Part shown: positions 9,959 to 61,867 of the stretch, piece by piece | How the letters are laid out: each line of letters opens with the position of its first letter | How positions within the stretch are numbered: the first letter of the stretch is position 1 | NCBI GenBank assembly: GCA_025774545.1 | Contig: JALGVU010000004.1 | Span: 2,130 to 66,129 of the forward strand | Direction: 5' to 3' | DNA: 64,000 nucleotides | From: a bacterium | GTDB taxonomy: Bacteria; Joyebacterota; Joyebacteria; Joyebacterales; Joyebacteraceae | Position numbers and translations under genes: made by a program | The notes under the pieces: generated by a model | The model's input: only the letters and a program-made list of their open reading frames with translations | Databases searched by the model: none | What the model was told of the DNA's origin: nothing

Positions 9959-10204
9959 TCAGTGTCCCTCCTCCTTGTCCACGACGAGGTTGGTCACCGT
10001 TCCCGTGACTCCCTCGATCGTGCGAAGCTGGTTCAACGTGAGATCGAGAAGCTCGTCGAAGGTCTCCGCCTCCACGAGGGCGATGATGTCCTGGTCGCCG
10101 CTCGTGAGATCGGCGGTCTTGACCTCGCGGCGTTCCAGGAGGGTGTCCCTCACCTCCCGCTCCTTCCCGGCGGCGACGTTGATCTTCACGTATGCTCGTG
10201 CCAC
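9959..10204 (-). CDS. stand-alone Lrp/AsnC C-terminal (RAM) ligand-binding domain protein, ~81 aa (GTG start)
   Basis: ARAYVKINVAAGKEREVRDTLLERREVKTADLTSGDQDIIALVEAETFDELLD resembles the AsnC-type effector domain; AAGGAGG RBS 5 nt before GTG at 10204. The ORF-track ORF extends further upstream to 10318. Confidence 0.5.
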   Translation of the reverse strand: MARAYVKINVAAGKEREVRDTLLERREVKTADLTSGDQDIIALVEAETFDELLDLTLNQLRTIEGVTGTVTNLVVDKEEGH

Positions 10205-22545: not shown

Positions 22546-23307
22546 TCAGGGAGCGGAGCGCACGATCTCCGTGAAGCTCTCCGCGTCGAGGCTGGCGCCG
22601 CCCACCAGGACCCCATCGATGTCGGTCTCTGCCATGAGGCTGGCGGCATTCTCCGCCTTCACGCTGCCGCCGTAGAGGATGCTGATCCCGTCGGCGGAAC
22701 GTCCCCCAAACATATCAACAAGACGGCCACGAATCAAGCGGTGAACCTCATTCGCCATCTCGGGCGTCGCGGTCCGTCCCGTCCCGATCGCCCAGACGGG
22801 CTCGTAGGCGAGCACCAGCCGGTGGGCGTGGTCCGGAGCGACCTCCGAAAGCCCGGTCTCGACCTGCCTCCGGACGACCTCCTCCGTTCTGCCCGCCTCC
22901 CTCTCCTCGAGCGACTCGCCCACGCAGACGATCGGCGTGAGGTCTCCCCCGAGCACGGCCTTGAGCTTGCGGTTCACCTCGGCGTCGGTTTCACCGAAGA
23001 TCGAGCGGCGCTCCGAGTGTCCGATGAGCACGAACTCGACCCCGGCCGCCTCGAGCATGGGGACCGACACCTCGCCGGTGAAGGCGCCCCCGGGCTCCCA
23101 GAAGACGTTCTGTGCGCCGATGCCGACGGCGCTCCCCTTTGCCGCGTCGACCGCCGTCTCGATGGCGACCGTGGGAGGACAGACGAGCACCGTGGCTCTC
23201 GTGTCGATCCCGGCGAGGCGGTTCCTGAATAGCTGGATCAGCCGCCGCGTCTCCGCAATCGTCTTGTTCAGTTTCCAGTTCCCGGCGACGATCGTCCTTC
23301 GAGTCAC
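22546..23307 (-). CDS. tpiA: triose-phosphate isomerase
   Basis: VAGNWKLNKT, IGHSERR, AYEPVWAIGTG motifs. Confidence 0.9.
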   Translation of the reverse strand: MTRRTIVAGNWKLNKTIAETRRLIQLFRNRLAGIDTRATVLVCPPTVAIETAVDAAKGSAVGIGAQNVFWEPGGAFTGEVSVPMLEAAGVEFVLIGHSERRSIFGETDAEVNRKLKAVLGGDLTPIVCVGESLEEREAGRTEEVVRRQVETGLSEVAPDHAHRLVLAYEPVWAIGTGRTATPEMANEVHRLIRGRLVDMFGGRSADGISILYGGSVKAENAASLMAETDIDGVLVGGASLDAESFTEIVRSAP

Positions 23308-23332
23308 TGTCTACACTCCGCTCTGGCTCCGG

Positions 23333-24538
23333 TCAGACAGCGTCCGTGAGCGCTTCGACGCCCGGGAGCGGCCTACCCTCGAGGAACATGAGGGACGCGC
23401 CGCCGCCGGTCGAGATGTGCGTCAGCCGGTCGGCGACTCCCGCCTTCGCGATCGCCGCCGCGGAATCCCCTCCCCCGATGATGCTCGTGGCACCCGCGTC
23501 CGTCGACTCGGCAACGGCCTCGGCGATCGCGTTCGTTCCCTCAGCGAAGGGCTCGATCTCGAAGACTCCGAGCGGCCCGTTCCACACGATCGTCTTGGCG
23601 TCACGGACGACGGCGGCGAACGCTTCGATGGTTCGGGGCCCGATGTCGACGCCCTTCCAGCCGGCCGGCACCCCGTCCTCGATCGACACGACCCTGGACG
23701 CGGCGCCCTCCTCGACGTCCTCCGCGGCAACGAGATCGACCGGGAGCGTGATCACCTTCCCCGCGTCGCGCGCCGCCTCGAGGATCGCGCGGGCCGTCTC
23801 GAGCCGGTCCTCCTCGAGGAGCGAGTCGCCCACGGCGAAGCCCTGGGCCTTCAGGAACGTGAAGGCCATGCCGCCGCCGACCAGGAACGTGTCGACCTTG
23901 GGCAAGAGATTCTCGATGACCCCAATCTTGTCTGACACCTTCGCGCCGCCCAGGATCGTGACGTAGGGCGGTTCCGGGGATTCCGTCGCCTGGGCAAGAT
24001 GGCGGAGCTCGTTCTCCATGAGGAAGCCCATCGCCCGTTCCTCGAAGTGGGCCGTCACACCGACGGTCGAGGCGTGTGCGCGATGCGCGGTGCCGAACGC
24101 GTCGTCGACGTAGACGTCGCCCATCCGGGCGAGCCGGAAGGCGAAGTCGGGCTCGTTCTTCGTCTCGCCGCGGTGGAACCTGAGGTTCTCGAGGAGCAGG
24201 ACGTCGCCGTTCCCCATCCGGGCCACCAGCCCCTCGGCCGTGTCGCCCACGCAGTCGGGGGCCATGGTCACGCCGAGTCCGAGGAGTTCGGCCAGGCGTG
24301 CCGCCACGGGCCGGAGCCTCATGGCGTCGACGAGCTCGCCCTTGGGCCTCCCGAGGTGCGACGCGAGGACCGCCTTGCCGCCCGCGTCCACGATGTGCCT
24401 CACGGTCGGGAGCGCGCTCCGGATCCTCGTGTCGTCCGTGATCTCTCCCCTGTCGTTCAGGGGGACGTTGAAGTCGACGCGGGTGAGCACGCGCCTGCCC
24501 TCAACGGCGAGGTCGTTCACGTGCAGCTTCTGCGTCAT
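23333..24538 (-). CDS. pgk: phosphoglycerate kinase
   Basis: Full-length PGK with conserved N-domain (RVDFNVP) and C-terminal GGGAS motif. Confidence 0.9.
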   Translation of the reverse strand: MTQKLHVNDLAVEGRRVLTRVDFNVPLNDRGEITDDTRIRSALPTVRHIVDAGGKAVLASHLGRPKGELVDAMRLRPVAARLAELLGLGVTMAPDCVGDTAEGLVARMGNGDVLLLENLRFHRGETKNEPDFAFRLARMGDVYVDDAFGTAHRAHASTVGVTAHFEERAMGFLMENELRHLAQATESPEPPYVTILGGAKVSDKIGVIENLLPKVDTFLVGGGMAFTFLKAQGFAVGDSLLEEDRLETARAILEAARDAGKVITLPVDLVAAEDVEEGAASRVVSIEDGVPAGWKGVDIGPRTIEAFAAVVRDAKTIVWNGPLGVFEIEPFAEGTNAIAEAVAESTDAGATSIIGGGDSAAAIAKAGVADRLTHISTGGGASLMFLEGRPLPGVEALTDAV

Positions 24539-24548
24539 ACGCCGTTCC

Positions 24549-25553
24549 TCACTTCCGGGCGACCAGCTTCATCATGTCGACCATGCGCGCGGCGTAGCCC
24601 GCCTCGTTGTCGTACCAGCCGAAGATCTTCACGAGGTCTCCGCCCTGGACCTTCGTCAGGAGGCTGTCGAAGATGCAGGAGTGCCGGTCGCCGATGATGT
24701 CGATTGAGACAATGGGTTCGTCGGTGAATCCGAGGTAGCCCTTGAGTGAACCCTCCTTCGACGCCTTCAGGAAGGCGGCGTTGATCTCCTCGGCGGTCGT
24801 CTTCTTCTCGAGCTGGACGGTGAAGTCGACGATCGAGCCGTCCGGCGTCGGGACGCGGATCGCCATCCCGTCGAGCTTGCCCTTGAGCTCAGGCATGACG
24901 ATGGTGATGGCCTTCGCGGCTCCCGTCGTCGTGGGGATCATCGAGACGGCGGCCGCGCGGGCCCGCCTCAGGTCCTTGTGGGGGAAGTCGAGGATCCTCT
25001 GGTCGCTCGTGTAGCCGTGGATCGTCGTCATGAGGCCCCGGACGATGCCAAAGTTGTCCAGAAGGACCTTGACCATCGGCGCCGCGCAGTTCGTCGTGCA
25101 CGAGGCCGTGGAGATGATGTCGTGCTTGTCCTGATCGTAGTCGCCGTCGTTGACGCCCATCACGATCGAGATGTCCGGCTCCTTCGCGGGCGCCGAGATC
25201 ATGACCTTCCCCGCGCCGGCGGTGAGGTGCTTCGAGGCCCCCGCGCGGTCCCTGAACTTGCCGGTCGACTCGATGACGACGTCGACACCGAGCTCCTTCC
25301 ACGGAAGGCCGGCGGGGTCCTTCTCGGAGTAGATCTTGAACCGGTCCCCGTTGACGACGATCTCGTCGCCCTCGACCGTGACGTCGCCGTCGAAGCGCCC
25401 GTGGACCGAGTCGTACTTGAACAGGTGCGCAAGCGTCGCCGCGTCCGTGAGATCGTTCACCGCGACGAGGTTGAAGTCGGGATTGTCCTTGGCGGTCCGG
25501 AGGACGAGCCTGCCGATGCGGCCGAATCCATTGATCGCGTAGTTGAGAGTCAA
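24549..25553 (-). CDS. gap: glyceraldehyde-3-phosphate dehydrogenase
   Basis: INGFGRIGR Rossmann motif and ASCTTNCAAP catalytic Cys motif. Confidence 0.9.
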   Translation of the reverse strand: MTLNYAINGFGRIGRLVLRTAKDNPDFNLVAVNDLTDAATLAHLFKYDSVHGRFDGDVTVEGDEIVVNGDRFKIYSEKDPAGLPWKELGVDVVIESTGKFRDRAGASKHLTAGAGKVMISAPAKEPDISIVMGVNDGDYDQDKHDIISTASCTTNCAAPMVKVLLDNFGIVRGLMTTIHGYTSDQRILDFPHKDLRRARAAAVSMIPTTTGAAKAITIVMPELKGKLDGMAIRVPTPDGSIVDFTVQLEKKTTAEEINAAFLKASKEGSLKGYLGFTDEPIVSIDIIGDRHSCIFDSLLTKVQGGDLVKIFGWYDNEAGYAARMVDMMKLVARK

Positions 25554-25563
25554 CGTGAACCTC

Positions 25564-26487
25564 CTAGATCTTCCCGGTCGACCCGAACAGCTCCATCTTC
25601 GATTTGACCACTTCCTTCATGCCTTCTCGCGCCGCGGCCAGGATCTTCCTTGGATCGAAAACCTCCGGCGTCTCCGCGAGAACCTGCCGGACGCGGGCGG
25701 TGAACGCAAGTCTGAGATCGGTGTCGATGTTGACCTTCGCGATGCCGTGCGCAACGGCCTCCCTGATGCTCTCGGGAGGCACGCCCCTGGCGCCTGGGAG
25801 CACCGCTCCGTAGCGCTGGGCCAGTCCGAGGACGTCGGGCGGCACGGCGGACGCCCCGTGCAGCACGAGAGGCACGGCGACGCGCTCGGCGATCTTCCTC
25901 AGTCTGTCGATCGCGAGCTTGGGCTCAGACTTGAACTTGTAGGCGCCGTGCGAGGTGCCGATGGCGACCGCGAGGGAGTCGCAGCCGGTTCGCTCCACGA
26001 ACTCGCGGGCCTCATCGGGGTCCGTGTAGGTGGCCTCAGACGCCGCGACCGCAATCTCGTCCTCGATGCCCATGAGCCTGCCGAGCTCCGCCTCGACCGA
26101 GACGCCGCGAGGCGCCGCCATCTCGACGACCTCCTTCGTGACACGCACGTTCTCCTCGAACGGCAGGTGAGATCCGTCGATCATGACGGAACTCCACCCG
26201 TGCTCGAGGCAGCTCCGGACCACGTCGAGATCGGTGCCGTGGTCGAGGTGGAGCGCGGCGGGCACGCCGGCGCGCTCCGCGAGATCCTCAACCATGAAGC
26301 GGATCTGCTCGTGGCCGGCGTAGGTGATCGCCGATTGCGACGTCGCCACCATCACGGGCGATCGCATCTCGGAGGCCGCCTCGAAGACGGCCTGCGTGAT
26401 CTCCAGGTTGCTCGTGTTGAACGCGCCCACGGCGTAGCCGTCGGCTCGGGCCGGCGCGAGGATGTCCTTGCCGGTGACGAGCGTCAC
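25564..26487 (-). CDS. fba: class II fructose-/tagatose-bisphosphate aldolase
   Basis: Class II FBA N-terminal GAFN motif, metal-binding His residues (LHLDHG), 307 aa. Confidence 0.8.
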   Translation of the reverse strand: MTLVTGKDILAPARADGYAVGAFNTSNLEITQAVFEAASEMRSPVMVATSQSAITYAGHEQIRFMVEDLAERAGVPAALHLDHGTDLDVVRSCLEHGWSSVMIDGSHLPFEENVRVTKEVVEMAAPRGVSVEAELGRLMGIEDEIAVAASEATYTDPDEAREFVERTGCDSLAVAIGTSHGAYKFKSEPKLAIDRLRKIAERVAVPLVLHGASAVPPDVLGLAQRYGAVLPGARGVPPESIREAVAHGIAKVNIDTDLRLAFTARVRQVLAETPEVFDPRKILAAAREGMKEVVKSKMELFGSTGKI

Positions 26488-26542
26488 GTCCTGTGTCCCC
26501 TCCGCGTTCGGGTTCCTGTGGTGATCCCGGTCGTTCGACGGC

Positions 26543-27592
26543 CTATCCGAAGAACGTCCGCGCGACCTCGTAGAGCTCCGAGTCGACCCGCTTGAGCGAT
26601 TCGGTCGCGTGCGACATCTCGATCGGGATGATCCTGTCGCCGGTGACGCTCGCCATCTTGCCGAAATCGCGTTCCTGGACGAGGTCGGCCGCCAGCACGC
26701 CGAAGCGAGTGCCGAGCACCCGATCGAAGGCCGTGGGCGTGCCGCCCCGCTGGATGTATCCGAGCACGCTCACGCGCGTCTCGTACCCGGTGTCGGCCTC
26801 GATGGCCCTCGCGAGCTCGTTTCCGATGCCGCCCAGCCTCACGTGACCGAACGCGTCGGTCCCGCCCTGCTTCACGACGAGCCCGTGGTTCTCGCCGTCC
26901 TCTCCCTTGACGGGGAACTCAGCGCCCTCGGCGACCACGACGATGCTGAAGTTCTTCCCGCGCCCGTGGCGCTTTCGGATGACGTCGCAGACCTCCTCGA
27001 GCGTGAACGGTATCTCGGGGATCAGGATCAGATCGGCGCCTCCGGCGATCCCCGCCTTGACGGCGATCCAGCCGGTGTGGCGTCCCATGACCTCGACCAC
27101 GACGACGCGGTTGTGCGATTCCGCGGTCGTGTGGAGGCGGTCGATGGCCTCGGTCGCGATGTGGACGGCAGTGTCGAAGCCGAACGTGAAGTCGGTGCCG
27201 CTGATGTCGTTGTCGATCGTCTTGGGCACTCCGACGATCGGCAGCCCTTCCTGGTAGAGCCGGTAGCCGACCCCGAGCGTGTCCTCACCGCCCACGGCGA
27301 TCAGCCCGGCGAGTTCGTCGCTCTCGAACTGCCGCTTGATCGCCTCCGGTCCGCCTTCGGTCTTGTACGGGTTCGTCCTCGACGTCCCCAGAATCGTGCC
27401 TCCGCGCGGGAGGATCCCGGACACCTCGTCCATTCCGAGCGGCAGCGTGTTCCCGTGCATCACACCCGCCCAGCCGTATCGGTACCCCAGGACCTGTCCC
27501 CCGTACTTGCCGATGGTGCGACGCACGATCGCGCGGATCACGGCGTTCAGTCCGGGGCAGTCGCCCCCACCGGTCAGAACTCCGACCTTCAT
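26543..27592 (-). CDS. pfkA: 6-phosphofructokinase (group III, actinobacterial-type; ATP- or PPi-dependent). The ORF extends to 27847 but the conserved start is MKVGVLTGGGDCPGLN
   Basis: GGDCPGLNAVIRA N-terminal motif, GGDGT-like and PFK core; ATG at 27592 chosen to match the conserved N-terminus. Confidence 0.8.
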   Translation of the reverse strand: MKVGVLTGGGDCPGLNAVIRAIVRRTIGKYGGQVLGYRYGWAGVMHGNTLPLGMDEVSGILPRGGTILGTSRTNPYKTEGGPEAIKRQFESDELAGLIAVGGEDTLGVGYRLYQEGLPIVGVPKTIDNDISGTDFTFGFDTAVHIATEAIDRLHTTAESHNRVVVVEVMGRHTGWIAVKAGIAGGADLILIPEIPFTLEEVCDVIRKRHGRGKNFSIVVVAEGAEFPVKGEDGENHGLVVKQGGTDAFGHVRLGGIGNELARAIEADTGYETRVSVLGYIQRGGTPTAFDRVLGTRFGVLAADLVQERDFGKMASVTGDRIIPIEMSHATESLKRVDSELYEVARTFFG

Positions 27593-27678
27593 GTCGTCCT
27601 CCGTGTTCGTGTCGCTGAGCGAGCGGGCTCGCGAGGCCTGCTCAGATCGAAGATGGTAGACTCGTCTCGCTCCGGATG

Positions 27679-28515
27679 TCAACCGCTTTTCCCCGAGCCC
27701 GTGTGCTCTTCGGGCACGCCGCGCCCCGCGGGCAGGCTCGGGCTCCGCGATCGTCTCCCGGCGCCCGAGCGGTGCGCTCCCTCCCCGCCGCTCGAACTCC
27801 CCGTCCGTTCCGGGACCCGGACTCGGCGGGCCGCGACGGCCAGGCACGCGACCGACGAGGCGTCGGCTTCGGCCAGCGCGTCCCGGGCGGCCCGCATCGT
27901 GGCGCCGGTCGTCACGACGTCGTCGAGGAGCAGAAGGCGCCGTCCCCGCGTGAGCGCGCGCACGCCCAGGAAGGCTCCCCGGACGTTGACCTCCCTCTCG
28001 CGCCGGCCGAGGCGAGCCTGACTCCTCGTCGATCGCGCGCGGACGAGAGCGCCCGGGATCACGGGAAGATCAAGGAGTCGCGCGAGGGATAGCGCGATGA
28101 GCTCGGCCTGGTTGAAGCCGCGCTCGCGCCGCCTCGTTCGGTGGAGCGGCACGGGCACGACGGCGTCGATCCCGGACGGGACGGCGACGCGCACGTGAGG
28201 AGCGACGAGGGCCGCGAGATCACCGGCGATCGAGGTGCGGCCGTCGTACTTGAGGGCGCGAATCAGCTCGCGGGCCGGCCCCTCGAAGTCCGCGACGTGC
28301 CACACGACGAGCGGCCCCGCTTCGACCTCGCAGAGCGCGGAGTCCGGGGCAACGAGGAAGGCTCGCGAGCGGGTCGCGATCGCCCGCAGGCAGAGGGCGC
28401 AGAGGTGCTTCTCCGGCGCGTCGAGTTGCCCGCCGCACGCGAGGCAGGAGTCCGGGAAGATGAACCCGAGAATCGCGGCGAGCGCGCGGGACGAGACTCG
28501 TTCGAACGTGGTCAC
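27679..28515 (-). CDS. comFC: ComF family phosphoribosyltransferase-domain protein (ComFC)
   Basis: N-terminal double Zn-ribbon (CLACG...CALC), C-terminal PRTase motif LLLLDDVVTTGATM. Confidence 0.7.
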   Translation of the reverse strand: MTTFERVSSRALAAILGFIFPDSCLACGGQLDAPEKHLCALCLRAIATRSRAFLVAPDSALCEVEAGPLVVWHVADFEGPARELIRALKYDGRTSIAGDLAALVAPHVRVAVPSGIDAVVPVPLHRTRRRERGFNQAELIALSLARLLDLPVIPGALVRARSTRSQARLGRREREVNVRGAFLGVRALTRGRRLLLLDDVVTTGATMRAARDALAEADASSVACLAVAARRVRVPERTGSSSGGEGAHRSGAGRRSRSPSLPAGRGVPEEHTGSGKSG

Positions 28516-44285: not shown

Positions 44286-45188
44286 CTACTCGACGGCCGC
44301 GAGGCTCTGCCGGTACTCCTCGAGCTTCGTTCTTGCCTGAAGGTCGTCCGTGTTGCGCTCGAGGATCGCCTCGCAGATCTCGATGGCGCGGGTGAAGAGC
44401 CCCTGGCGGGCGTAGATCTCAGCGAGCGTGAGCGTGGCGATGCCGGAGAGCTCGTCTTCCCGCGTGCCGGCCTCCTCGGGGTCGACCGGCGCGGCGAAGA
44501 GATCGGCCAGATGGGCCAGCTCAAGCGACAGGCTGCCCACCTCCCGCTCCCGGGCGGCCGGCTGGATCATCGGACGATCCTCGCTCGACGGGATGATGAG
44601 CGGAGGCCGGTCGGCCGCGGGCTCGGCGTCCGGAGGCCGGTCGGCCGCGGGCTCATCGCGCGGAGGTTGGTCGGCTGGGGGCTCGTCGTGCGAAGGCCGG
44701 TCGGCCGCGGGCTCATCGCGCGGAGGTTGGTCGGCCGGGGGTTCGTCGTGCGGAGGCCGGTCGGCCGCGGGCTCATCGCGCGGAGGTTGGTCGGCTGGGG
44801 GCTCGTCGTGCGAAGGCCGGTCGTCGGCCGGAGACGGCGGGGTCAACGCGGCGTCCGGCGCTTCCGCCCGGGCGCGGGTCTCACAGTCGTCCAAGTAGGC
44901 GCGGGCCTCGATGTTGTCGGGATCGCCGGCGAGCACCACGCGGAAGGCGGCTTCGGCTTCGTCGCTCCTGTCGAGGGCCAGTGCCCTCGCGAGAACGACG
45001 CGGATCGACAGGTGGTCCGGGAATTCCCCGAGGGCATCCCTCGCGAGCGCGACGGCCTCATCGACTCTGCCCTGGAGTCGGTAGGCTTCCGCGAGCGGGG
45101 CGAGGACGCGGGGTGACCTCCGCTCGGAGAGCCTCTCTTCAAGGGCGCGGATGGCGCCGTCCAGAGCGTCTCGGTCCGGAGCCTTCAA
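44286..45188 (-). CDS. TPR-repeat protein with internal 20-aa tandem repeats (RPxHDEPPADQPPRDEPAAD)
   Basis: TPR-like helices at both ends; 60-nt tandem repeat x ~3.8 at 44606-44836. Confidence 0.6.
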   Translation of the reverse strand: MKAPDRDALDGAIRALEERLSERRSPRVLAPLAEAYRLQGRVDEAVALARDALGEFPDHLSIRVVLARALALDRSDEAEAAFRVVLAGDPDNIEARAYLDDCETRARAEAPDAALTPPSPADDRPSHDEPPADQPPRDEPAADRPPHDEPPADQPPRDEPAADRPSHDEPPADQPPRDEPAADRPPDAEPAADRPPLIIPSSEDRPMIQPAAREREVGSLSLELAHLADLFAAPVDPEEAGTREDELSGIATLTLAEIYARQGLFTRAIEICEAILERNTDDLQARTKLEEYRQSLAAVE

Positions 45189-53472: not shown

Positions 53473-54348
53473 CTACCCCTTTCCCAGTGCCTTCTGAACC
53501 TCTCTGATCACCGCCTGCACGATCGCTTCGTCCGGCGACCCTTGACCGCTGGTCCGCGGTGGAGCCGCCGGCCCGGCTCCCGCCGTCGATGGGGTCTCCT
53601 GGTCGGCCGTCGTCCGAGCGGGCGGCGACGTTCGAGCCTGGCTCTCCTTCTCCTCGCTGTCTGAGGTGTCGCAGGCTCCGCAGGAGAAACAGCTTGCAGC
53701 TCCGTCGGCGAGACCGAGCTTCTCACGCACGTCGAGGAGCTTCCTGACCTCATCCCGCGTCAGAGGAGACGCGCCGCCGAGTATCCTGGCCGAGAGAGTG
53801 ATCTCGGCGAAGTGCTCCACGGTCTCGAGGCGGAAGTACGCCCGGTCGATGTCCGCACCGAGCGTCAGGACGCCGTGGTTCCGGAGCAGCAGCGCGTTGT
53901 AGTTCCCGATGAAGGCGTCGATCGACTCGGGGACCTCGGGCGTCGAGGGCGTCGCGTAGTCCGTGAGCGGCACCTGCCCGAGCGTCAGGATCACCTCGGG
54001 GAGCACGCACTGGGCGAGCGGTACTCCGGCCACGGCGAAGCCGGTGGCGCGCGGCGGGTGCGCGTGGACGATCGCGTCGACGTCTCGCCGTCGCTCGTAG
54101 ACGAAGAGGTGCATCGGGAGCTCCGAGGACGGCGCGCGCGCGCCCGAGATCTGCCGGCCCCGGGCGTTCACGATCGCGAGCTCCTCCAGACGAAGGAAGC
54201 CCTTCGAGACACCGGTCGGCGTCACCAGAATCCTGTCGTCGGACAATCTGACGCTCAGGTTGCCGTCGTTGGCGGCGACGTAACCCCGCTGCCAGATGCG
54301 GCGGCCGATCTCGACGATCTGGCGCCTGGCCTCGAACTCGGACGGCAC
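53473..54348 (-). CDS. class II aldolase/adducin family protein (fuculose-/rhamnulose-1-phosphate aldolase-like) with C-terminal linker + amphipathic helix (putative BMC encapsulation peptide)
   Basis: Class II aldolase Zn-binding His pattern (HAHP ... H); C-terminal Ser/Thr/Pro/Ala-rich linker followed by terminal helix DEAIVQAVIREVQKAL. Confidence 0.8.
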   Translation of the reverse strand: MPSEFEARRQIVEIGRRIWQRGYVAANDGNLSVRLSDDRILVTPTGVSKGFLRLEELAIVNARGRQISGARAPSSELPMHLFVYERRRDVDAIVHAHPPRATGFAVAGVPLAQCVLPEVILTLGQVPLTDYATPSTPEVPESIDAFIGNYNALLLRNHGVLTLGADIDRAYFRLETVEHFAEITLSARILGGASPLTRDEVRKLLDVREKLGLADGAASCFSCGACDTSDSEEKESQARTSPPARTTADQETPSTAGAGPAAPPRTSGQGSPDEAIVQAVIREVQKALGKG

Positions 54349-54445
54349 GGGATCGCTCCTCAGGGGTCGCCGGCGGCACGCGGCCGGCGGCGGTGACGTT
54401 TCCTGTCGGCTGGGCCGGCCGAGCGCCGGCCCCCCGGCGGCGGGA

Positions 54446-54718
54446 CTACTCCTCGACGTCGATGCTGTCGATGACGCCGACGATGACGGTGCGAATGGGC
54501 GGGTTGTCGAGTCCGGTCACGAGGGCGGCCGAGCCTCCCTCGTCGACCACGAGCACGGTGTCTCCCCTTCCCGCCTGGACCGAGTCGACGGCGAGGATCG
54601 TCTCGTCGAGACTCGTGCCGTCGGGATCGAGCCTCTCGACGATGAGGAGTTTCCGGCCGTTCATCGCGTCGTGATGAACCGTCGAGACGACCTCGCCGAT
54701 GACCCGTCCGATGAACAC
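54446..54718 (-). CDS. BMC vertex protein, EutN/CcmL/PduN family (BMC-P #3), GTG start
   Basis: VFIGRVIGEVVSTVHHDAMNGRKLLIVERL matches Pfam03319 N-terminus; AAGGAG RBS; the ORF-track ORF 54446..55078 is over-extended. Confidence 0.8.
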   Translation of the reverse strand: MFIGRVIGEVVSTVHHDAMNGRKLLIVERLDPDGTSLDETILAVDSVQAGRGDTVLVVDEGGSAALVTGLDNPPIRTVIVGVIDSIDVEE

Positions 54719-54723
54719 GCCGC

Positions 54724-55014
54724 TCACTCCTTGGGGAAGATCGATTCGCCTCCGACGGTCACGTGATCGACGATGCCGACGATCGCCGCGTCCGCGGGAT
54801 TGAACGTGGGACTCAGGGCCTTCGCGGCCTCGCGCGACTTGACGAAGTAGACGAGCTGGCCGGGCGCGGCGCTCACGGTGTCGACCGCGACGAGAGGCGT
54901 CCCCCGCTCCTCGAGGAGGTGCGTGAGGGGCTGGACGACCAACATGCGTTTCCCCGTCAGCGAATCCACCTTCGCGGTCGCCCACACGGTTCCGATCACC
55001 CTCGCCAGGTGCAA
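54724..55014 (-). CDS. BMC vertex protein, EutN/CcmL/PduN family (BMC-P #2)
   Basis: MHLARVIGTVWATAKVDSLTGKRMLVVQPL N-terminus. Confidence 0.8.
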   Translation of the reverse strand: MHLARVIGTVWATAKVDSLTGKRMLVVQPLTHLLEERGTPLVAVDTVSAAPGQLVYFVKSREAAKALSPTFNPADAAIVGIVDHVTVGGESIFPKE

Positions 55015-55028
55015 GGCTGCCTCCGCGC

Positions 55029-55577
55029 CTAGAAGACCTTCGGCCCGAGATCCTCGTGCGGTCTCGGGATGACGACACTCCGGACGAGGTTGCCCCCGCG
55101 CTTCGCGACCGCGAGAGCGGCCTCGGTGGCCGCCTCGACGTCGTAGATCTCGCCGGTCATCGTGAAGAACGCCTTTCCCCCGAGTCCCTTCGCGAGGCGG
55201 ATCTCGATGAGCTTGACCGGCGCGGCCTTCGCGGCCGCGTCGGCCGCGAGGATGCTCGATGCCACCGTGAACGTCTCAACGACGCCGAGCGCGCCGAGGG
55301 CGGACACCTCCGTCGCGCCCAGGATCGCCGGGAAGACGTCAGGGTGGACGTGCGGGATGAAGAGGGTGTCGGCGACGACGTCGCCGCCGACGGCGGCGCC
55401 CCTCTCGAGCGACGCCTCGACCGACGACACGTCACCCGCGACGAGCACCATGAACTTGCCGGGGCAGATCGCGGTTGCCTCCAGGATCTCGACGTCGGCC
55501 GTCTTGGCCATCTCGTCGGTGACCGCGATCCCGATCGCGATGCTGATCGTCTCGACGAGTCCGATGGCTTCCTTCAC
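55029..55577 (-). CDS. tandem-domain BMC shell protein (BMC-T, PduT-like)
   Basis: Two PF00936-like domains (GLVET...VTDEMAKTADVEIL and GVVETFTVASSILAADAAAKAAPVKLIEI); 182 aa. Confidence 0.75.
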   Translation of the reverse strand: MKEAIGLVETISIAIGIAVTDEMAKTADVEILEATAICPGKFMVLVAGDVSSVEASLERGAAVGGDVVADTLFIPHVHPDVFPAILGATEVSALGALGVVETFTVASSILAADAAAKAAPVKLIEIRLAKGLGGKAFFTMTGEIYDVEAATEAALAVAKRGGNLVRSVVIPRPHEDLGPKVF

Positions 55578-55646
55578 GAAGCACTGCCTCCCTCAGGCGC
55601 GATCCCCGTTGGGTCGCGCTCTTCCGCTCCACCGCGCCGTCCCGGC

Positions 55647-56975
55647 TCACGCGGCGATGACGATCTCCTCCGCGGTGATCGATTCGATCGTACCCGCGAT
55701 GCTCGCGTGCACGCGGGCGCCGAGCTTGCCATCGGGGATCTCGCCAACGACGTCCCCTTCGAGCACGCGGTCTCCCTCGGCGACCACCGGCCGCGCGGCG
55801 GCGCCGATGTGCTGGGTCGTTCTGAGGAAGACGCGCGCGGGCTCGAGCCGGCGTTCGTCGAGAGGAGCCGGCCCATCGTACTCCGAGAGCCCCAGTCGCT
55901 GCACGAGCCTCGCTGACGGTATCTGCCGGTACTCGCGCACGTCGTCGGGCTTGAGGTCGGCCCGGCGGTGCGGATTCACCACGCCTCGGCGCGTGAGTTC
56001 GGCCTTGAGGTCCGCGAGGATCCGCCGCGGGCGAATCCCGAGGGGGCACGCGAAGAGCTCGCACATGCCGCACTCGCAGCAGAGGAACGCCGACGTGACG
56101 TGCTCGTGATCCTCGGGCAACGTGTCGTACTGCACGGCCCGCACCGTGCGGTGCGGCTTCAGGTCGTGTCCCAGGAGCGCGCGCGGACAGAGCTCCGTGC
56201 AGGCGAGGCACTGACAGCAGGCCGCCCGCGCGATCCGGAGCATCTGCGCCCGCGACTCGGTCCGCGCGGTCACCATGGTGTGATCCGGCGGAAGCACGAT
56301 GAGCCCGCCGACCGTCTTCGTCAGCGGCACCGCGTGGCTCGACGCGATCGTCCCCATCATCGGACCGCCGACGATCACGGCCGCGTCGTCGACCGTCACG
56401 CCGCCCGCGCGGTCGATGATCTCGCCGATCGGCGTTCCGATCGGCACGGTCAGGGTCGCCGCGGCTGCGACCTCTCCCTGGACGGTCACCATCCTCGAGG
56501 TCACGGGCCGTCCCTCGACCGCGTCTGCGATCTGCGCGAGGGTCGTGACGTTGTTCACGACCACGCCCACGTCGAGCGGGATCCCGCCCTCGGGGACGAC
56601 GCGCCCCGTGACGTCGAAGACCAGCAGGAACTCATCGCCCGCGGGATAGACGTTCTCGAGGAGCTTGAGCTCGATCGCGGAATCGGCCGGCAGAACGCGC
56701 TCGATCGCCTCGCCCGCCCGCCTGTTCTTCCTCTTGACGGCGAGGACCACACGGCTCGCTCCGACCGATTCGGCGAGAAGCTCGAGACCGCGTACGACCC
56801 GATCGGGCCGCGAGACGAGAAGCTCGGTGTCCGACCGGATCAGCGGCTCGCACTCGGCGCCGTTCGCGAGGAGCACGTCCACGTCGGCCCTCGCCTTGAC
56901 GTGCGTCGGGAACCCGCCCCCGCCCGCACCGACGACGCCCGCCTTCTCGATCGCTGTGGCCACCTGATTGTCCAC
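55647..56975 (-). CDS. PduS/RnfC-like NADH-binding flavoprotein with two [4Fe-4S] ferredoxin motifs
   Basis: N-terminal GVVGAGGGGFPTHVKA (RnfC/PduS nucleotide-binding), CCQCLACTELCP and CCECGMCELFACP cluster motifs; C-terminal barrel-like GDRVLEGDVVGEIPDGKLGARVHASIAGTIESI segment. Confidence 0.7.
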   Translation of the reverse strand: MDNQVATAIEKAGVVGAGGGGFPTHVKARADVDVLLANGAECEPLIRSDTELLVSRPDRVVRGLELLAESVGASRVVLAVKRKNRRAGEAIERVLPADSAIELKLLENVYPAGDEFLLVFDVTGRVVPEGGIPLDVGVVVNNVTTLAQIADAVEGRPVTSRMVTVQGEVAAAATLTVPIGTPIGEIIDRAGGVTVDDAAVIVGGPMMGTIASSHAVPLTKTVGGLIVLPPDHTMVTARTESRAQMLRIARAACCQCLACTELCPRALLGHDLKPHRTVRAVQYDTLPEDHEHVTSAFLCCECGMCELFACPLGIRPRRILADLKAELTRRGVVNPHRRADLKPDDVREYRQIPSARLVQRLGLSEYDGPAPLDERRLEPARVFLRTTQHIGAAARPVVAEGDRVLEGDVVGEIPDGKLGARVHASIAGTIESITAEEIVIAA

Positions 56976-57050
56976 GGTTCGTTGCGTCTCCAGGCGCTTC
57001 TGCCGCGTGCCCGCGCGTCCTCGGGGAGCTCGGTCCTCGGGGACGGCGCG

Positions 57051-58484
57051 CTACACGATGCGGAAGTGGTCGACGAGCGTACACCGCCGCTCGCGCGTGA
57101 AGGTGCGCGCGGACGTGAGTCCCTCGCCGGTCGGGCTCGCGATGGTGAACGACGTGAAGCCCTCGCCGCCAAAGCTGAGCCCGGCGAACGACGGCCCGTT
57201 CTTCACGAAGATCGAGACGTCCATGACGCGGGCCATCCGAGAGAGAACATCGATGTTCTTGGAATGGGCCACCGCAGTATGTCCGTAGCCCCGCTCCACC
57301 TCGCGCGCGAAGTCGATCGCCTCGGCGGCCGTCTCGACGGTCACGAGGGGGATGATCGGCATCATCTGCTCCGTCCACACGAGCGGATGGGAGCGATCGG
57401 CGTCGAAGAACGCGATCCTCGCGTCGGAGCGGCACGGGAGGCCCGCCGCATCGAGGATGACGGACACGTTCTTCCCGACGAAGTCCCGCGCGACGGGCGA
57501 GCTCCTCCCCGGTCCCAGGTTCTCCGTCAGGACGAGATCGGTGACACGGTCGACCACGGGCCCCCTGAGCTCGACCGCCCCGGCCTGTCTGAGGGCGTCC
57601 TTCAGGGCGTCCGCGATGGCGCGAACCGCGACGATCTCCTTCTCCGCGATGCACACGATGTTGTTGTCGAGGCTCGCGCCGGCGATGATGTCGCGGGCGG
57701 CCTTCGGCAGATCGGCCGTCTCGTCGACCACGACGGGGGGGTTCCCGGGACCCGCGGCGATCACCTTCTTGCCCGACTGCATGGCGGCCTTGACGACGCC
57801 GGGGCCGCCGGTCACCACGAGAAGCCGGATTCCGGGATGGGACATGACGGCCTGCGCGGTCTCGATCGAGGGCTCGTTCACGGTGTGGAGAAGCGCCCTC
57901 GGTCCCCCGGCCTCCGAGATGGCGCGGTTCAGAATGTCGATCGTCGTCAGAGAGACGACGCGAGCCGACGGATGGGGATTGAAGACGACGGCGTTGCCGC
58001 CGGCGACCATCCCGATGGCGTTGCAGATGATCGTCTCGGACGGGTTCGTCGAGGGGGTGACGGAGCCGATCACGCCGTAGGGCGCATGTTCGACGAGGGT
58101 CAGGCCGTGGTCGCCCGAGTAGGCCGTGGGCGCGAGGTCCTCGAGGCCGGGCGTCTTCGTGATCGCGAGGGTGTTCTTGCGGATCTTGTCCTCGTAGCGC
58201 CCGAGTCCGGTCTCGTCGACGGCGAGCCTCGACAGCCGCTCGACGTTCTCGAGGGCGGCCCGGCGCATCGCATCGATCATGGCGCGGCGTCGCTCGAGCG
58301 GGACGTCGCGGTATTCGAGGAAGCTCGTGCGGGCGGCGGCCGCGGCCGCGTCGACGCTCCCGAGGATACCGCGTCCGTCGAACGGAGGCGGCGCCTGCGG
58401 CGTCTCGAGCGCCTGTCCGCGCGCCGTCAGCTCGTCGAGCACCTTGCCGACGATCGTCTCGATTGAGGGGGCGTCTCTCTCCAC
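57051..58484 (-). CDS. CoA-acylating aldehyde dehydrogenase (EutE/PduP family) with N-terminal amphipathic helix (putative encapsulation peptide)
   Basis: ALDH fold with catalytic Cys (NNIVCIAEKE) and EutE/PduP-like spacing; N-terminal SIETIVGKVLDELTARG helix + Pro-rich linker. Confidence 0.85.
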   Translation of the reverse strand: MERDAPSIETIVGKVLDELTARGQALETPQAPPPFDGRGILGSVDAAAAAARTSFLEYRDVPLERRRAMIDAMRRAALENVERLSRLAVDETGLGRYEDKIRKNTLAITKTPGLEDLAPTAYSGDHGLTLVEHAPYGVIGSVTPSTNPSETIICNAIGMVAGGNAVVFNPHPSARVVSLTTIDILNRAISEAGGPRALLHTVNEPSIETAQAVMSHPGIRLLVVTGGPGVVKAAMQSGKKVIAAGPGNPPVVVDETADLPKAARDIIAGASLDNNIVCIAEKEIVAVRAIADALKDALRQAGAVELRGPVVDRVTDLVLTENLGPGRSSPVARDFVGKNVSVILDAAGLPCRSDARIAFFDADRSHPLVWTEQMMPIIPLVTVETAAEAIDFAREVERGYGHTAVAHSKNIDVLSRMARVMDVSIFVKNGPSFAGLSFGGEGFTSFTIASPTGEGLTSARTFTRERRCTLVDHFRIV

Positions 58485-58587
58485 GTGTGAACGATCCTCG
58501 ATGAGGAACGGCGATCCCGAGAGGGGCGAGCCTCACGGACCCGCGTCGCGGCCCGTCGGCCCTTGCTCCCCGCCTGGGATCGCCGTC

Positions 58588-58878
58588 CTAGGACTTGTTA
58601 TAGACGATGCTCCCGTCGACCTCGACCGAGTCGACGATGGCCATGATCACGGCATCGGCGGGGCGGTCCTGCGTGATCTCCGTCTGACGAGCCGAGCTGC
58701 CGCTGGCGTAGAGCACGACCTCCCCGGGACCCGCCCCGACGGCGTCGATCGCGACGACGAACGCGCCGGTCTCGCCGCCCTCCAGATCGATCTGCTTGAC
58801 GATCTGGAGCTTCGTCCCGACCAGCTTCTCGTTCTTGACGGTCGAGACGACCGTCCCCACGACCTTCCCGAGATTCAT
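58588..58878 (-). CDS. BMC vertex protein, EutN/CcmL/PduN family (BMC-P #1)
   Basis: [31 protein letters not shown]-terminus. Confidence 0.8.
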
Positions 58879-58972
58879 GCCGCTTCTCCCGCATCGCGCG
58901 ACTCTCCCGCCCCGGGGTCGTGCTGTCCACGCACGGGGAGCGAGTACTCGGCGCGCCTCGTCGGTGTCCTGG

Positions 58973-59269
58973 CTACTTCGATCTGACGTTCGCGGTCTTC
59001 CCTATCGGCAGCACGTCCTCGAGGCTCGCGTGCGGCTTCGGGATCACGTGCGTCGTGAGAAGCTCGCCGACCTTGCTGGCCGCCGCCATGCCCGCGTCGA
59101 CCGCGGCGCGCACTGCCGCCACGTCCCCACGGACGACGGCCGTGACGTATCCCCCGCCGACCTTCTCGTACCCCACCAACGTCACCTTCGCCGCCTTGAC
59201 CATGGCGTCGGACGCCTCCACCATGCCGATGAAACCTCTCGTCTCGATCATGCCGAGGGCCTCGCCCAT
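58973..59269 (-). CDS. BMC hexamer shell protein (BMC-H, PF00936); ORF extends to 59323
   Basis: [57 protein letters not shown] canonical BMC-H. Confidence 0.85.
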
Positions 59270-59344
59270 CGCAACCTCCTCGAGCGAATCCTGGATCTTC
59301 GTATCGCCTGCGCGTCTGCCCACGCGGCCGCCGTCGGCGCGCCG

Positions 59345-59617
59345 TCAGGTGAGCAGAATGTCCTCGAGCATCTCATGCGGCGCGGGGATCACGTGGTACG
59401 AGACGAGCTCGCCGACCTTCGACGCGGCCTCGGCGCCGGCCGCCACCGCCGCCTTCACCGCCCCCACGTCTCCCCGAACCAGCGACGTGACGTATCCCCC
59501 GCCGATCTTCTCGTACTTCGTCAGGGTGACGTTCGCCGTCTTGACCATCGCGTCGGTCGCCTCGATGAGGCCGATGACGCCCTTGGTCTCTACCATTCCT
59601 AGAGCAAGACCGGGCAA
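59345..59617 (-). CDS. BMC hexamer shell protein (BMC-H, PF00936)
   Basis: [58 protein letters not shown]. Confidence 0.85.
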
Positions 59618-59657
59618 ATGGACCCCCTCCGTCGGTAGCTGACGTACATCCCCGAGC

Positions 59658-60305
59658 CTACCGGAGTATCTCGATCGTCATCGGCGACCGAACGTCGGCC
59701 GCGTTGCCGTCGTCCGTGTCGACGTGAAGCTCGAGGGCCGCCGTCTTCCCAACTCGGATGAGCACGCTCTCGAGGACGAGCGCCCTCACGCCCGCGAACC
59801 GCACCCGGACCAGATCGCCGTCCTTCACACGGCGGATCGTCGCGTCGCGCTCGGTCATGTGGATGTGACGCGTGGCCCGTATGGCCCCTTCCCTGAGCGC
59901 CACGGTTCCGGCCGGGCCGACGAGCGTGAGAGGCTCGCTGCCCGCGAGGTCGCCGGAGCGCCGAACGGGCGGGTCGATCCCCAGCCGGATTGCGTCGGTC
60001 CTCGAAAGCTCCACCTGGGTGTAGTTCCTCGTCGGTCCGAGGATCCTCACCCCCTCGATCGCGCGCATGGAGCGCCCGACGATCGTCACCCTCTGCTCCG
60101 AGGCAAACTCACCAGGCTGGCCGAGGTCCCGGAGCTTCGTGAGGGCGAACCCGTCGCCGTAGAGCGCGTCGAGGCCGCCCCGGGAGATGTGCGCGTGCCG
60201 GGCAGACACGTTGACCGGAATCCCGGTGGCGTCGGATCGGCGTGCCGGCTCGTCTCCCTGGAGCCTCCGGAGGACCTCCGATGCTATCCTCTCGACGTCC
60301 TCCAT
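59658..60305 (-). CDS. pduL: phosphate acyltransferase PduL (PTAC) with N-terminal amphipathic helix. ORF extends to 60527; ATG at 60305 with GGAGGG RBS
   Basis: Duplicated PduL motifs with catalytic His (VSARHAHIS ... ATRHIHMT); N-terminal [14 protein letters not shown] helix. Confidence 0.8.
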
Positions 60306-60393
60306 CCCTCGACCCTCCGCTGCGCGCACCTGCGGGAGACAAACCTCCCCGCTGCGGGCGCGGAAGTCCACTCTCGGCCCTGAGTTGAGCGCG

Positions 60394-60422
60394 AGTCTAG
60401 CAGAGGGTCCTGAGACTGTCAA
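60394..60422 (-). promoter_or_regulatory. candidate sigma70-like promoter for the BMC operon (TTGACA-17-TAGACT), ~90 nt upstream of pduL
   Basis: Minus strand: TTGACA at 60422-60417, 17-nt spacer, TAGACT at 60399-60394. Confidence 0.3.
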
Positions 60423-60500
60423 CGGAAACGGACGGGAGGAGGGACGCCGTGATGAGTCGACGGGAAGGACCCGTCTCGGGCGCGGTGCGCACCGTCGGGC

Positions 60501-60550
60501 GCCAACGAAGAAACCCCCGGCTGACACCTTGTGGGAGGACCAGCCGGGGG
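60501..60550 (-). terminator. Rho-independent terminator-like hairpin (10-bp stem CCCCCGGCTG/CAGCCGGGGG, 17-nt loop) followed on the minus strand by TTTCTTCGTT
   Basis: Perfect inverted repeat 60514-60523 / 60541-60550; U-rich tail on the minus strand only; lies between the glycosyltransferase genes and the BMC operon. Confidence 0.4.
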
Positions 60551-60910
60551 CTCTTCAGTTCAGACGCGTTCCCCGCGTGTGCCGTGCAACAGGTACGGTA
60601 CGACTCATTCTCTGGATGGGGATCAGCCCACGACCTGGTGAATGCTCACGAGCATGGCAGGGAACGCATCATGCCCCTTGGTATCTGGAGCATCTAACGA
60701 AGCAGGATCCGTGCCATCATGAGGAAGCGGTGCGAGGGGCGGGCTCCGCCGTTCAGGCCCAAAGGCTGGGCCGTTTCGGGCGGGTGGCCGATGTTGCAGC
60801 GCCCGCTGTGGGCGCTATGAAGCCCTCGTTTCTGCAACGGGCGGCGACGTAGGAGCGGTCTCCCGACGGCGAGGCGGCAGCGGTCAGTCGGTGGTGAGGT
60901 AGAGGAACGA

Positions 60911-61867
60911 TCAGCGTGCCCTGCGCTCAAGCGCCGCCGCGAGTCCGCGGCGGTACGCCCCCGCGATGAGACAGAGAACCGCGGGACGCGAGAGCGGCCC
61001 CAAGTGAACGCTACGCGCCACGGCTCTCACGAGCGCGCTCACGGGGCGGTTCGTGACGAAGCGGAGCACGAGCTTCCTCGCGGCAAGGGGGAACGGGTCG
61101 CCGGGCGCGGGAGGAAGGAGCCCGGCGACCGAGAGCTCGCCCGCGCGGCCGGGATGCCGCTCGAGAAGTGCTAAGAGAGGCTCGGCCGTCTCGAAGCGCT
61201 TGTCGAGGACTTGGTCGAGGGTCTGCCGGTGGACGTGGTGCGAGATTGCCTCGGCACAGTACCAGAACTTGAGGCCGGCGTCGTTCTCGAGGCGGAAGGC
61301 GATCTCGGTGTCCTCGAAGCCGTAGTTCTTGAAGCTCTCGTCGAAGAGCCCGACCGCGAGGAGATCGGCGCGGGCGACCGAGGAGTTGTTGGTGACGAAA
61401 TAGCGCGCCGGGGAACGCCCGCCCGGCGCGAGCTTGCGGACCCCCGTGCCGTCCAGATACGTGTAGATCGTGGACCGCCCCAGTTCGGGAGCCTGGGTCG
61501 CGTCTCCGATCGCGACGGCCCGGTCGTGGGTCTCGTGAAACGCCACGTGCGCCTCGATGAGTCCCTCGTCGCAGCGCATGTCGTCGTCGACGAAGACGAC
61601 GAGGTCGTTTCCGGCGGCCCGGATGGCCGTGTTCCGGGCGGCGGCCCTCCCCCGGTTCTCCTCGTGTCTCACCGCGACGAGCTTGAAGGGCGGCTCGAGC
61701 GCCTCGAGGAACGCGGGGGTGTCGTCGGCGGAGCAATCATCGACGACGACGACCTCGATGAGGTCCATCGGATACGTCTGCCGGGAGAGCGACGCGAGCG
61801 TCTCGGCGAGGTTCTCCAGCTTTCCGTACGTCGGCATGACGACGCTCACGGTGCTACGGGGCGGCAT
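60911..61867 (-). CDS. family 2 glycosyltransferase
   Basis: VVMPTYGKLENLAETLASLSRQTYP ... VVDDCSADDT (GT-A DxD region). Confidence 0.75.
   Translation of the reverse strand: MPPRSTVSVVMPTYGKLENLAETLASLSRQTYPMDLIEVVVVDDCSADDTPAFLEALEPPFKLVAVRHEENRGRAAARNTAIRAAGNDLVVFVDDDMRCDEGLIEAHVAFHETHDRAVAIGDATQAPELGRSTIYTYLDGTGVRKLAPGGRSPARYFVTNNSSVARADLLAVGLFDESFKNYGFEDTEIAFRLENDAGLKFWYCAEAISHHVHRQTLDQVLDKRFETAEPLLALLERHPGRAGELSVAGLLPPAPGDPFPLAARKLVLRFVTNRPVSALVRAVARSVHLGPLSRPAVLCLIAGAYRRGLAAALERRAR

Follow-up and report, generated by a model that had tools for sequence, protein, structure and literature searches.

Putative encapsulation peptides on the aldolase, aldehyde dehydrogenase and PduL of an aldolase-type microcompartment operon

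The DNA analysed here, called the window, is a stretch of 64,000 nucleotides from a bacterium of the lineage Joyebacterota (assembly GCA_025774545.1, contig JALGVU010000004.1, positions 2,130 to 66,129 of the forward strand), with a G+C content of ~68%. On its minus strand, at positions 53473-60305, a Pfam scan and the open reading frames (ORFs) delimit a compact bacterial microcompartment (BMC) operon of ten closely spaced genes. Our subject is the termini of three enzymes encoded there: a class II aldolase, a CoA-acylating aldehyde dehydrogenase (AldDH) and a PduL-type phosphotransacylase. The original prediction for this operon had proposed that each of the three carries at one terminus an amphipathic helix, set off by a linker, that serves as an encapsulation peptide. 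In the direction of transcription the gene order is PduL, BMC-H, BMC-H, BMC-P, AldDH, PduS/RnfC-like flavoprotein, BMC-T, BMC-P, BMC-P and aldolase. The six shell genes (PF00936 and PF03319; two BMC-H, one BMC-T and three BMC-P) are thus interspersed with the three enzyme genes.

59658-60305, minus strand: PduL-type phosphotransacylase, 215 aa (PF06130 at residues 30-205, E = 2.8e-66)
59345-59617 and 58973-59269, minus strand: two BMC-H genes (PF00936, E = 8e-29 and 7e-30)
58588-58878, minus strand: BMC-P gene 1 (PF03319, E = 6e-29)
57051-58484, minus strand: CoA-acylating aldehyde dehydrogenase, 477 aa (PF00171)
55647-56975, minus strand: PduS/RnfC-like flavoprotein of the MNdh type, 442 aa (Complex1_51K, SLBB, Fer4_17 and a C-terminal RnfC_N)
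55029-55577, minus strand: BMC-T with tandem BMC domains (two PF00936 stretches; C38 in ICPGK)
54724-55014 and 54446-54718, minus strand: BMC-P genes 2 and 3 (PF03319, E = 2e-26 and 9e-25; the start of gene 3 was set at GTG 54718)
53473-54348, minus strand: class II (FucA-like) aldolase, 291 aa, candidate signature enzyme (PF00596 at residues 9-185, E = 1.8e-47)

The nearest named relatives of the operon proteins come from metagenome-assembled genomes (MAGs) of Candidatus Eisenbacteria; for the window aldolase, no record of identical sequence was retrieved. An identical order of the ten genes is found in one such MAG (locus L001, 4000-10780) and in two further loci, L004 (1251-7434) and L037 (4533-10627). 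The same genes, differently arranged, are present in loci from Neomoorella, Lachnospiraceae and Ignavibacteria.

The terminal segments of the three enzymes are as follows.

53671-53691, minus strand: aldolase cysteine motif C220-F-S-C223-G-A-C226 (CxxCGAC) at the start of the C-terminal extension, from the alignment
53536-53670, minus strand: aldolase low-complexity linker, residues 227-271 (60% Ser/Thr/Pro/Ala, zero large hydrophobic residues)
53488-53535, minus strand: aldolase C-terminal helix, residues 272-287 (PDEAIVQAVIREVQKA), putative encapsulation peptide, from the AlphaFold2 model
58425-58463, minus strand: AldDH N-terminal helix, residues 8-20 (IETIVGKVLDELT), putative encapsulation peptide, from DSSP on the AlphaFold2 model
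58395-58424, minus strand: AldDH linker, residues 21-30 (ARGQALETPQ); the alignment to structure 5JFL begins at residue 31, and PPPFDGRG follows as the conserved start of the domain
60258-60299, minus strand: PduL N-terminal amphipathic helix, residues 3-16, putative encapsulation peptide, from periodicity and conservation
60225-60257, minus strand: PduL linker, residues 17-27, variable in length among homologues

In the aldolase, the catalytic domain and the C-terminal extension are clearly distinct. None of the metal ligands (E76, H95, H97 and H158) varies. The domain is matched by 38 distinct solved sequences of the class II aldolase family, none of which reaches past residue 220. Solved aldolases of the FucA and YgbL types are 200-222 aa long and align inside residues 4-213; E. 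coli FucA itself (215 aa, encoded in a fuc operon without shell genes) aligns to residues 9-200. Foldseek comparison with FucA/YgbL structures gave TM-scores of 0.88-0.90 when normalised to the target and 0.64-0.66 when normalised to the query, over ~210 columns. The protein ends with ...SPDEAIVQAVIREVQKALGKG. An AlphaFold2 model built from an 88-sequence alignment shows a confident domain to residue ~210, a segment with a predicted local distance difference test score (pLDDT) below 50 at residues 225-270, and a helix at residues 272-287 (limits from DSSP) with a block pLDDT of 87-90.

The segment between domain and helix had been described as a Ser/Thr/Pro/Ala-rich linker of ~55 residues. Its richness is borne out: residues 214-271 consist to 57% of these four residues and to 2% of large hydrophobics, against 26% Ser/Thr/Pro/Ala in the domain. 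The length was overestimated, as the disordered part spans residues 225-270 (~45 aa). Nor is the beginning of the linker featureless, since the motif CFSCGAC (residues 220-226) is at least 90% conserved; only the remainder is of low complexity. From the cysteine motif to the helix the distance varies between 8 and 71 residues among 104 homologues. Within the helix, positions I276, V277, V280, I281 and V284 are occupied throughout the family by I, V or L, so that they are always hydrophobic and interchangeable.

The AldDH N-terminus reads M/V-ERDAPSIETIVGKVLDELTARGQALETPQAPPPFDGRG. This protein matches the model of the EutE/PduP subfamily (NCBIfam PRK15398, 644 bits across residues 7-477), and the alignment to PRK15398 begins at residue 7, so this model takes in the peptide. 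Its best relatives in the PDB are the BMC AldDH structures 5JFL and 4C3S, and BMC-type alignments begin at residues 31-39. Non-BMC enzymes, AdhE among them, align only from AldDH residues 42-57, which in AdhE correspond to residues 7-24. A comparison of the N-terminal 39 residues with solved structures returned a chance-level match only (E = 0.9). Among 62 homologues, the helix residue V15 never varies, and conservation reaches at least 90% at I8, I11, V12 and L19. Between the helix and a landmark within the domain, 99 homologues have 63-112 residues, a spread of 49 residues.

For this enzyme the predicted N-terminal peptide stands, and the Pro-rich linker QAPPPFDGRG that was proposed to follow it needs correction. 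The motif FDGRG(I/V) recurs in the N-termini of the closest AldDH homologues directly after the tether, is the consensus of the alignment and contains G39, which is at least 90% conserved; it belongs to the start of the domain. Since the alignment to the BMC AldDH structure begins at residue 31, the true linker corresponds to about residues 21-30. As an observation on the side, the conserved FDGRGI occupies residues 35-40 (residues 24-32 onward: 58389-58415, minus strand), and its place is taken by G-(V/I/A)-F in BMC AldDHs that are more distant. FDGRG(I/V) may be a clade-specific mark of the AldDH domain start.

PduL starts at ATG 60305, with GGAGG upstream. About 100 homologues open with M-[DE]-[DE]-V-[ED]-[RK], which matches this start. 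A longer PduL ORF from GTG 60527 was considered and rejected because the N-termini of these ~100 homologues begin at the Met equivalent to that of ATG 60305. The amphipathic peptide with which PduL was said to open is present from this start codon and lies outside the PF06130 domain. Periodicity suggests that residues 3-16 are helical. Conservation over 67 homologues is 90% for V4, 94% for A8, 100% for E10 and V11, and 99% for R14 and L15. The crystallised, peptide-deleted PduL core 5CUO aligns from residue 28 and the Pfam domain from residue 30. Between the end of the helix and the motif IPVxVSxRH, 110 homologues have 11-73 residues.

The amphipathic periodicity of the three helices had been judged by eye, and it can now be given in numbers. 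Amphipathicity was expressed as the Eisenberg moment at 100 degrees, with p values obtained from shuffling. The 13-residue cores have moments of 0.71 (aldolase, IVQAVIREVQKAL), 0.52 (AldDH) and 0.79 (PduL). The family-averaged values, for which helix limits were taken from AlphaFold2 and hydrophobicity was averaged over the alignment of each family, are 0.41 (p = 0.05), 0.54 (p = 0.02) and 0.77 (p = 0.008), respectively. As a reference we used the N-terminal peptides of E. coli K-12 EutC and EutE, taken from the genome record, with moments of 0.61 and 0.44; the window cores are comparable or higher. We take these two N-termini to be validated targeting peptides, as demonstrated for the Salmonella orthologues.

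All three peptides share a hydrophobic face at positions i, i+3, i+4, i+7, i+8 and i+11. They can be described by a single consensus, x-E-x-I-[VA]-x-x-V-[LI]-x-x-[LV], which EutC (QIEEIVRSVMASM) and EutE (DIEQVVKAVLLKM) fit as well; the pattern of these two matches that of the window peptides, DEAIVQAVIREV among them. A strict regular expression for the pattern finds about one match per 1,400 residues in the 50 predicted proteins of the window. Apart from the enzymes, it hits protein termini only in an S49 peptidase, whose hydrophobic N-terminus by eye probably spans the membrane or acts as a signal, and in two BMC-P proteins, both at the N-terminus and one at the C-terminus too.

Are these extensions extra to the enzymes? 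In each of the three families, represented by ~120 homologues, conservation is seen in the helix, and the length of the tether varies from ~10 to ~70 residues. The original prediction would have failed had free-living homologues carried the same termini. The segments are absent from FucA, from the solved aldolases, from AdhE and from two short metagenomic aldolase homologues, P0380 and P0404, which are 46-51% identical and lie in non-BMC neighbourhoods. Two further short control homologues, P0450 and P0419, sit on contigs of ~1 kb, which give no usable gene context. For PduL, the absence of the peptide from homologues that are not BMC-associated is known from the literature (PMC4784909).

A scan of species-representative genomes with a 12-sequence alignment yielded 80 aldolase loci, 79 of them with a complete aldolase gene; the hosts include Eisenbacteria, Acidobacteriota, Latescibacterota, Bacillota and Ignavibacteria. 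Since a strict regular expression for the helix missed peptides (for example that of L001), the locus table was classed by extension length. An extension is present in 75 of the 79 aldolases, and in 63 of these 75 shell genes occur within the fetched flanks, which measured at most 10 kb. Four aldolases are short, and three of them (L023, L025 and L033) have no shell matches in these flanks.

Taken together, the three segments share one anatomy: an amphipathic helix of 13-16 residues with a single conserved hydrophobic face, tethered flexibly and at variable length to the catalytic domain. Judged by the encapsulation-peptide criteria of Kinney 2012 and Aussignargues 2015, all three are terminal, predicted to be helical, amphipathic, variably tethered, absent from free-living relatives and encoded in a shell operon, and at the level of sequence the reading of linker plus terminal helix as an encapsulation peptide holds for each of them. 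We consider it very probable that the three terminal helices are the encapsulation peptides of an aldolase-type (PVM-like) metabolosome. By inference, aldolase, AldDH and PduL would all reside in the lumen.

Several points weigh against this interpretation. Helix prediction is confident for the aldolase, and the AldDH helix at residues 8-20, though predicted, is of low confidence (pLDDT < 50 over residues 1-27 in AlphaFold2). When the exact strings of the original prediction are used, the moments are 0.49, 0.34 and 0.71 for aldolase, AldDH and PduL, with p values of 0.06, 0.20 and 0.03, and the family profile of the aldolase is borderline at p = 0.05. In 12 of the 75 extended aldolases the flanks hold no shell gene (L018, L038, L039, L051, L053, L054, L057, L060, L063, L064, L067 and L080), and for several of these 12 the flanks are far shorter than 10 kb; short contigs or satellite loci are a possible explanation. 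Conversely, a short aldolase of 226 aa in a Caldithrix MAG (L016, 10001-10666) is encoded beside shell genes. Given both the extended aldolases without shell genes and a short one next to them, the association between extension and shell is strong, not absolute. Finally, native peptides sometimes load cargo poorly into minimal shells.

Some of these loci deserve mention in their own right. In L038, L039, L051 and L080 (aldolase at 10001 in each) the aldolase has the extension and an amphipathic helix, and no shell, AldDH or PduL gene lies within 6-10 kb on each side. They may be satellite loci, or the peptide-bearing enzymes may be encoded apart from the shell genes. In a Phycisphaerales MAG (L055, 10001-10669) a 238-aa aldolase lacks a recognisable terminal helix; L016 and L055 adjoin four to five shell genes.

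Three other explanations of the helices were weighed. The one that survives best holds that they are mainly elements of cargo-cargo aggregation or oligomerisation which nucleate a core, with only one or two of them touching the shell and the other enzymes carried along by piggybacking. According to published work, such peptides cause aggregation and alter the oligomeric state of PduL, and core-first assembly and piggybacking have both been proposed (PMC4594438, PMC4784909). The consensus common to the three peptides would also allow mutual binding, or competition for a single site. However, this model refines the encapsulation-peptide reading and is no true alternative to it, and all three peptides are equally conserved among homologues, which argues that each is under selection. 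We regard it as improbable.

Much less plausible is a role as ordinary structural or regulatory parts, such as active-site lids or oligomer contacts, unrelated to microcompartments. Amphipathic helices are common in proteins, and in a sliding-window scan of the moment each of the three enzymes has an internal helix that scores equal or higher. The C-terminal tail of E. coli FucA takes part in catalysis; Y113F/Y209F mutants of this enzyme are listed in the PDB. Yet solved and free-living homologues lack the helix segments, and disordered tethers of widely varying length are incompatible with a fixed structural role, so that this explanation is largely refuted. Least credible of all is that PduL and AldDH owe their N-terminal peptides to the choice of start codon and that these peptides are not translated: a genome of ~68% G+C does offer many alternative GTG and TTG starts, but initiation at the next in-frame ones (AldDH codon 15 or 69, PduL codon 33) would remove part of the helix or of the conserved domain, the peptides are conserved in homologues of 57-80% identity with hydrophobic positions at 90-100%, and Shine-Dalgarno-like GGAGG and GAGGA precede the chosen starts.

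If the helices are encapsulation peptides, a mechanism can be outlined by analogy with Pdu, Eut and related systems. During assembly, the hydrophobic face would bind the grooves between shell hexamers and would also drive the co-aggregation of the cargo enzymes. As a result, aldolase, CoA-acylating AldDH and PduL would be packaged together. In the lumen, the aldolase would cleave its substrate, probably a deoxy-sugar phosphate, to an aldehyde, probably lactaldehyde. AldDH would turn this aldehyde into acyl-CoA, and PduL would recycle the CoA. The best NCBIfam matches of the aldolase are OtnC, ribulose-1-phosphate aldolase and FucA, all far under the cut-offs, and there is no sugar kinase or isomerase gene nearby.

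Regeneration of NAD+ would probably fall to the PduS-like flavoprotein, with electrons leaving the compartment via the cysteine-bearing BMC-T. The operon has no alcohol dehydrogenase (AlcDH) gene. An NAD+-recycling module composed of MNdh and BMC-T(SE) has been defined for loci that lack AlcDH by Sutter and colleagues in 2024 (PMC11626177), and the domain order of the flavoprotein fits the MNdh definition: PF01512, PF10531, a 4Fe-4S dicluster domain and a C-terminally permuted PF13375/RnfC_N (residues 378-437). The role of the pore cysteine in BMC-T is taken from the literature (PMC4207490, PMC11626177). A PduS-like protein together with a BMC-T carrying C38, and the lack of AlcDH, thus fit an electron-export route for NAD+ recycling of the MNdh/BMC-T(SE) kind. 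The flavoprotein itself is without a terminal extension, as its domains run from residue 9 to 437 of 442 and TIGR01945 matches from residue 3.

The cysteine motif at the start of the aldolase linker requires separate discussion. Across 88 close homologues, C220, C223, G224 and C226 each show a conservation of at least 90%, and C114 (54007-54009) does not vary. Among 348 aldolase relatives examined, 131 have a CxxCxxC motif; Clostridia possess cysteine-rich variants and Acidobacteria a two-cysteine variant. At least three cysteines in the segment co-occur with a PduS-like gene (19/24 versus 4/38 shell-associated loci). This contrast mostly separates an ACI-type clade of Acidobacteria from the rest and is confounded by phylogeny, and it is therefore a lead and not a result.

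A four-cysteine metal site formed by C114 with C220, C223 and C226 was likewise dropped as a claim and kept as a lead, being inconsistent outside the close clade. C114 and the tail cysteines occur together in 112 of 119 sequences of that clade, their association is moderate among 150 diverse representatives (odds ratio 3.9), and it is reversed among the 79 genome loci (odds ratio 0.23). A literature search of limited coverage found no description of a cysteine or Fe-S feature of BMC aldolases, CxxCGAC included. The survey of 2015 gives a cysteine content of 5.5% for aldolase linkers, yet describes them as without sequence conservation (PMC4594438). One could speculate that the motif, possibly with C114, is a metal, Fe-S or redox-sensitive site which couples aldolase activity or tethering to the electron-export module of PduS-like flavoprotein and cysteine-pore BMC-T; we hold this to be rather unlikely. 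CxxCGAC, in a linker supposed to be unconserved, is the only element here that may exceed published descriptions.

The operon is embedded among unrelated housekeeping genes. Its neighbours encode an S49 peptidase, an HU-like ORF (recognised by eye), a flavin reductase and a glycosyltransferase. At a greater distance in the window there are genes for MreB, MreC, PBP2, FtsK, AccB, AccC and EF-P, as well as a glycolysis cluster. Between the PduL start and the glycosyltransferase gene (60911-61867) lie ~600 bp (60306-60910), which contain the spurious-looking extension of the PduL ORF. A scan of the window with Rfam gave zero matches, this interval included, and thus indicates no riboswitch upstream of the operon.

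Three further regions of the window were noted. The glycolysis cluster (22546-27847, minus strand) encodes triosephosphate isomerase, phosphoglycerate kinase, GAPDH, class II fructose-bisphosphate aldolase and phosphofructokinase; although 26 kb away, it could process dihydroxyacetone phosphate from the compartment aldolase. At 44600-44823, within the ORF 44286-45188 (minus strand), a 60-bp tandem repeat of 3.7 copies with 92% identity encodes Pro- and acid-rich repeats (…DEPPADQPPRDEPAADRP…) midway in a predicted protein of 300 aa, the flanks of which look TPR-like by eye. Lastly, 17291-20905 (minus strand) encodes a protein of 1,204 aa that combines a peptidase C25 (gingipain-like) domain with a FlgD Ig-like domain at its C-terminus; the large ORFs that adjoin it, 14453-15784 and 15890-16984, have no Pfam match.

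These results suggest that an uncultured, Eisenbacteria-like lineage uses the standard BMC targeting device. They support the annotation of the ten-gene operon as a functional aldolase-type metabolosome with three co-packaged core enzymes. In practice, the peptide boundaries could be used to design targeting tags or to truncate the enzymes for expression in soluble form. Furthermore, the consensus common to the window peptides and the enteric Eut peptides underlines a conserved shell-binding interface.

How does this operon relate to known systems? By gene content, it resembles the PVM-like or 'SPU-like' loci with MNdh and BMC-T(SE): they share the aldolase, AldDH, PduL, the PduS homologue and the BMC-P triplet, and both lack AlcDH. 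In contrast to PVM-like loci, no DeoR regulator, acetate kinase or sugar kinase/isomerase adjoins the window operon. Shells of the PVM and PVM-like types have been described (PMC4207490), and the number of BMC-P genes, three, is at least that of BMC-H genes, two, as is the rule for PVM-type shells; one BMC-T completes the set. Gene content supports the label of an aldolase-type (PVM-like) metabolosome locus, and synteny shows only that the locus type is recurrent. Loci of the PVM, PVM-like and ACI types with a C-terminal peptide on the aldolase appear in the catalogue of Sutter et al. 2021. Its main text does not mention the host lineage, whose nearest relatives are the Candidatus Eisenbacteria MAGs.

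Encapsulation peptides were surveyed on a large scale by Aussignargues et al. in 2015 (1,065 peptides; PMC4594438). In that survey, 21 of 23 BMC class II aldolases carry a C-terminal peptide of ~17 residues behind linkers of 23-81 residues, and the alignment also comprised 12 non-BMC aldolases (PMC4594438). Phosphotransacylase peptides are N-terminal there, and those of AldDHs are N- or C-terminal (PMC4594438). The window aldolase agrees with the BMC class II aldolases of the PVM, PVM-like, GRM5, ACI and SPU5 types in family (PF00596) and in terminus, and in each case the extension is absent from non-BMC homologues. Its helix is of similar length (~13-16 residues versus ~17), and its linker of ~45-58 residues falls within the published range of 23-81. 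The published linker is described as unconserved, whereas here and in most close relatives it opens with CxxCGAC.

For AldDH, the closest counterparts are the enteric PduP/EutE aldehyde dehydrogenases and EutC, which display the same hydrophobic pattern and a near-identical consensus (EutE DIEQVVKAVLLKM and EutC QIEEIVRSVMASM compared with AldDH SIETIVGKVLDEL). Within this group, targeting is known to have been tested directly only in the enteric proteins PduP/EutE and EutC. The peptide of PduL and its link to aggregation were reported by Erbilgin et al. 2016 (PMC4784909), and Gu et al. 2024 located a peptide binding site between the tessellating tiles of the shell (PMC11157265). Compared with this published PduL peptide (Erbilgin 2016; Gu 2024), the window protein shows no substantial difference: both belong to PF06130 and have an N-terminal helix of ~16 residues followed by a short linker. 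In relatives of the window PduL, linkers reach 73 residues, against the 1-35 tabulated in 2015 (PMC4594438). The feature described here is already published for exactly these three enzyme families, on the same termini, and as such is textbook.

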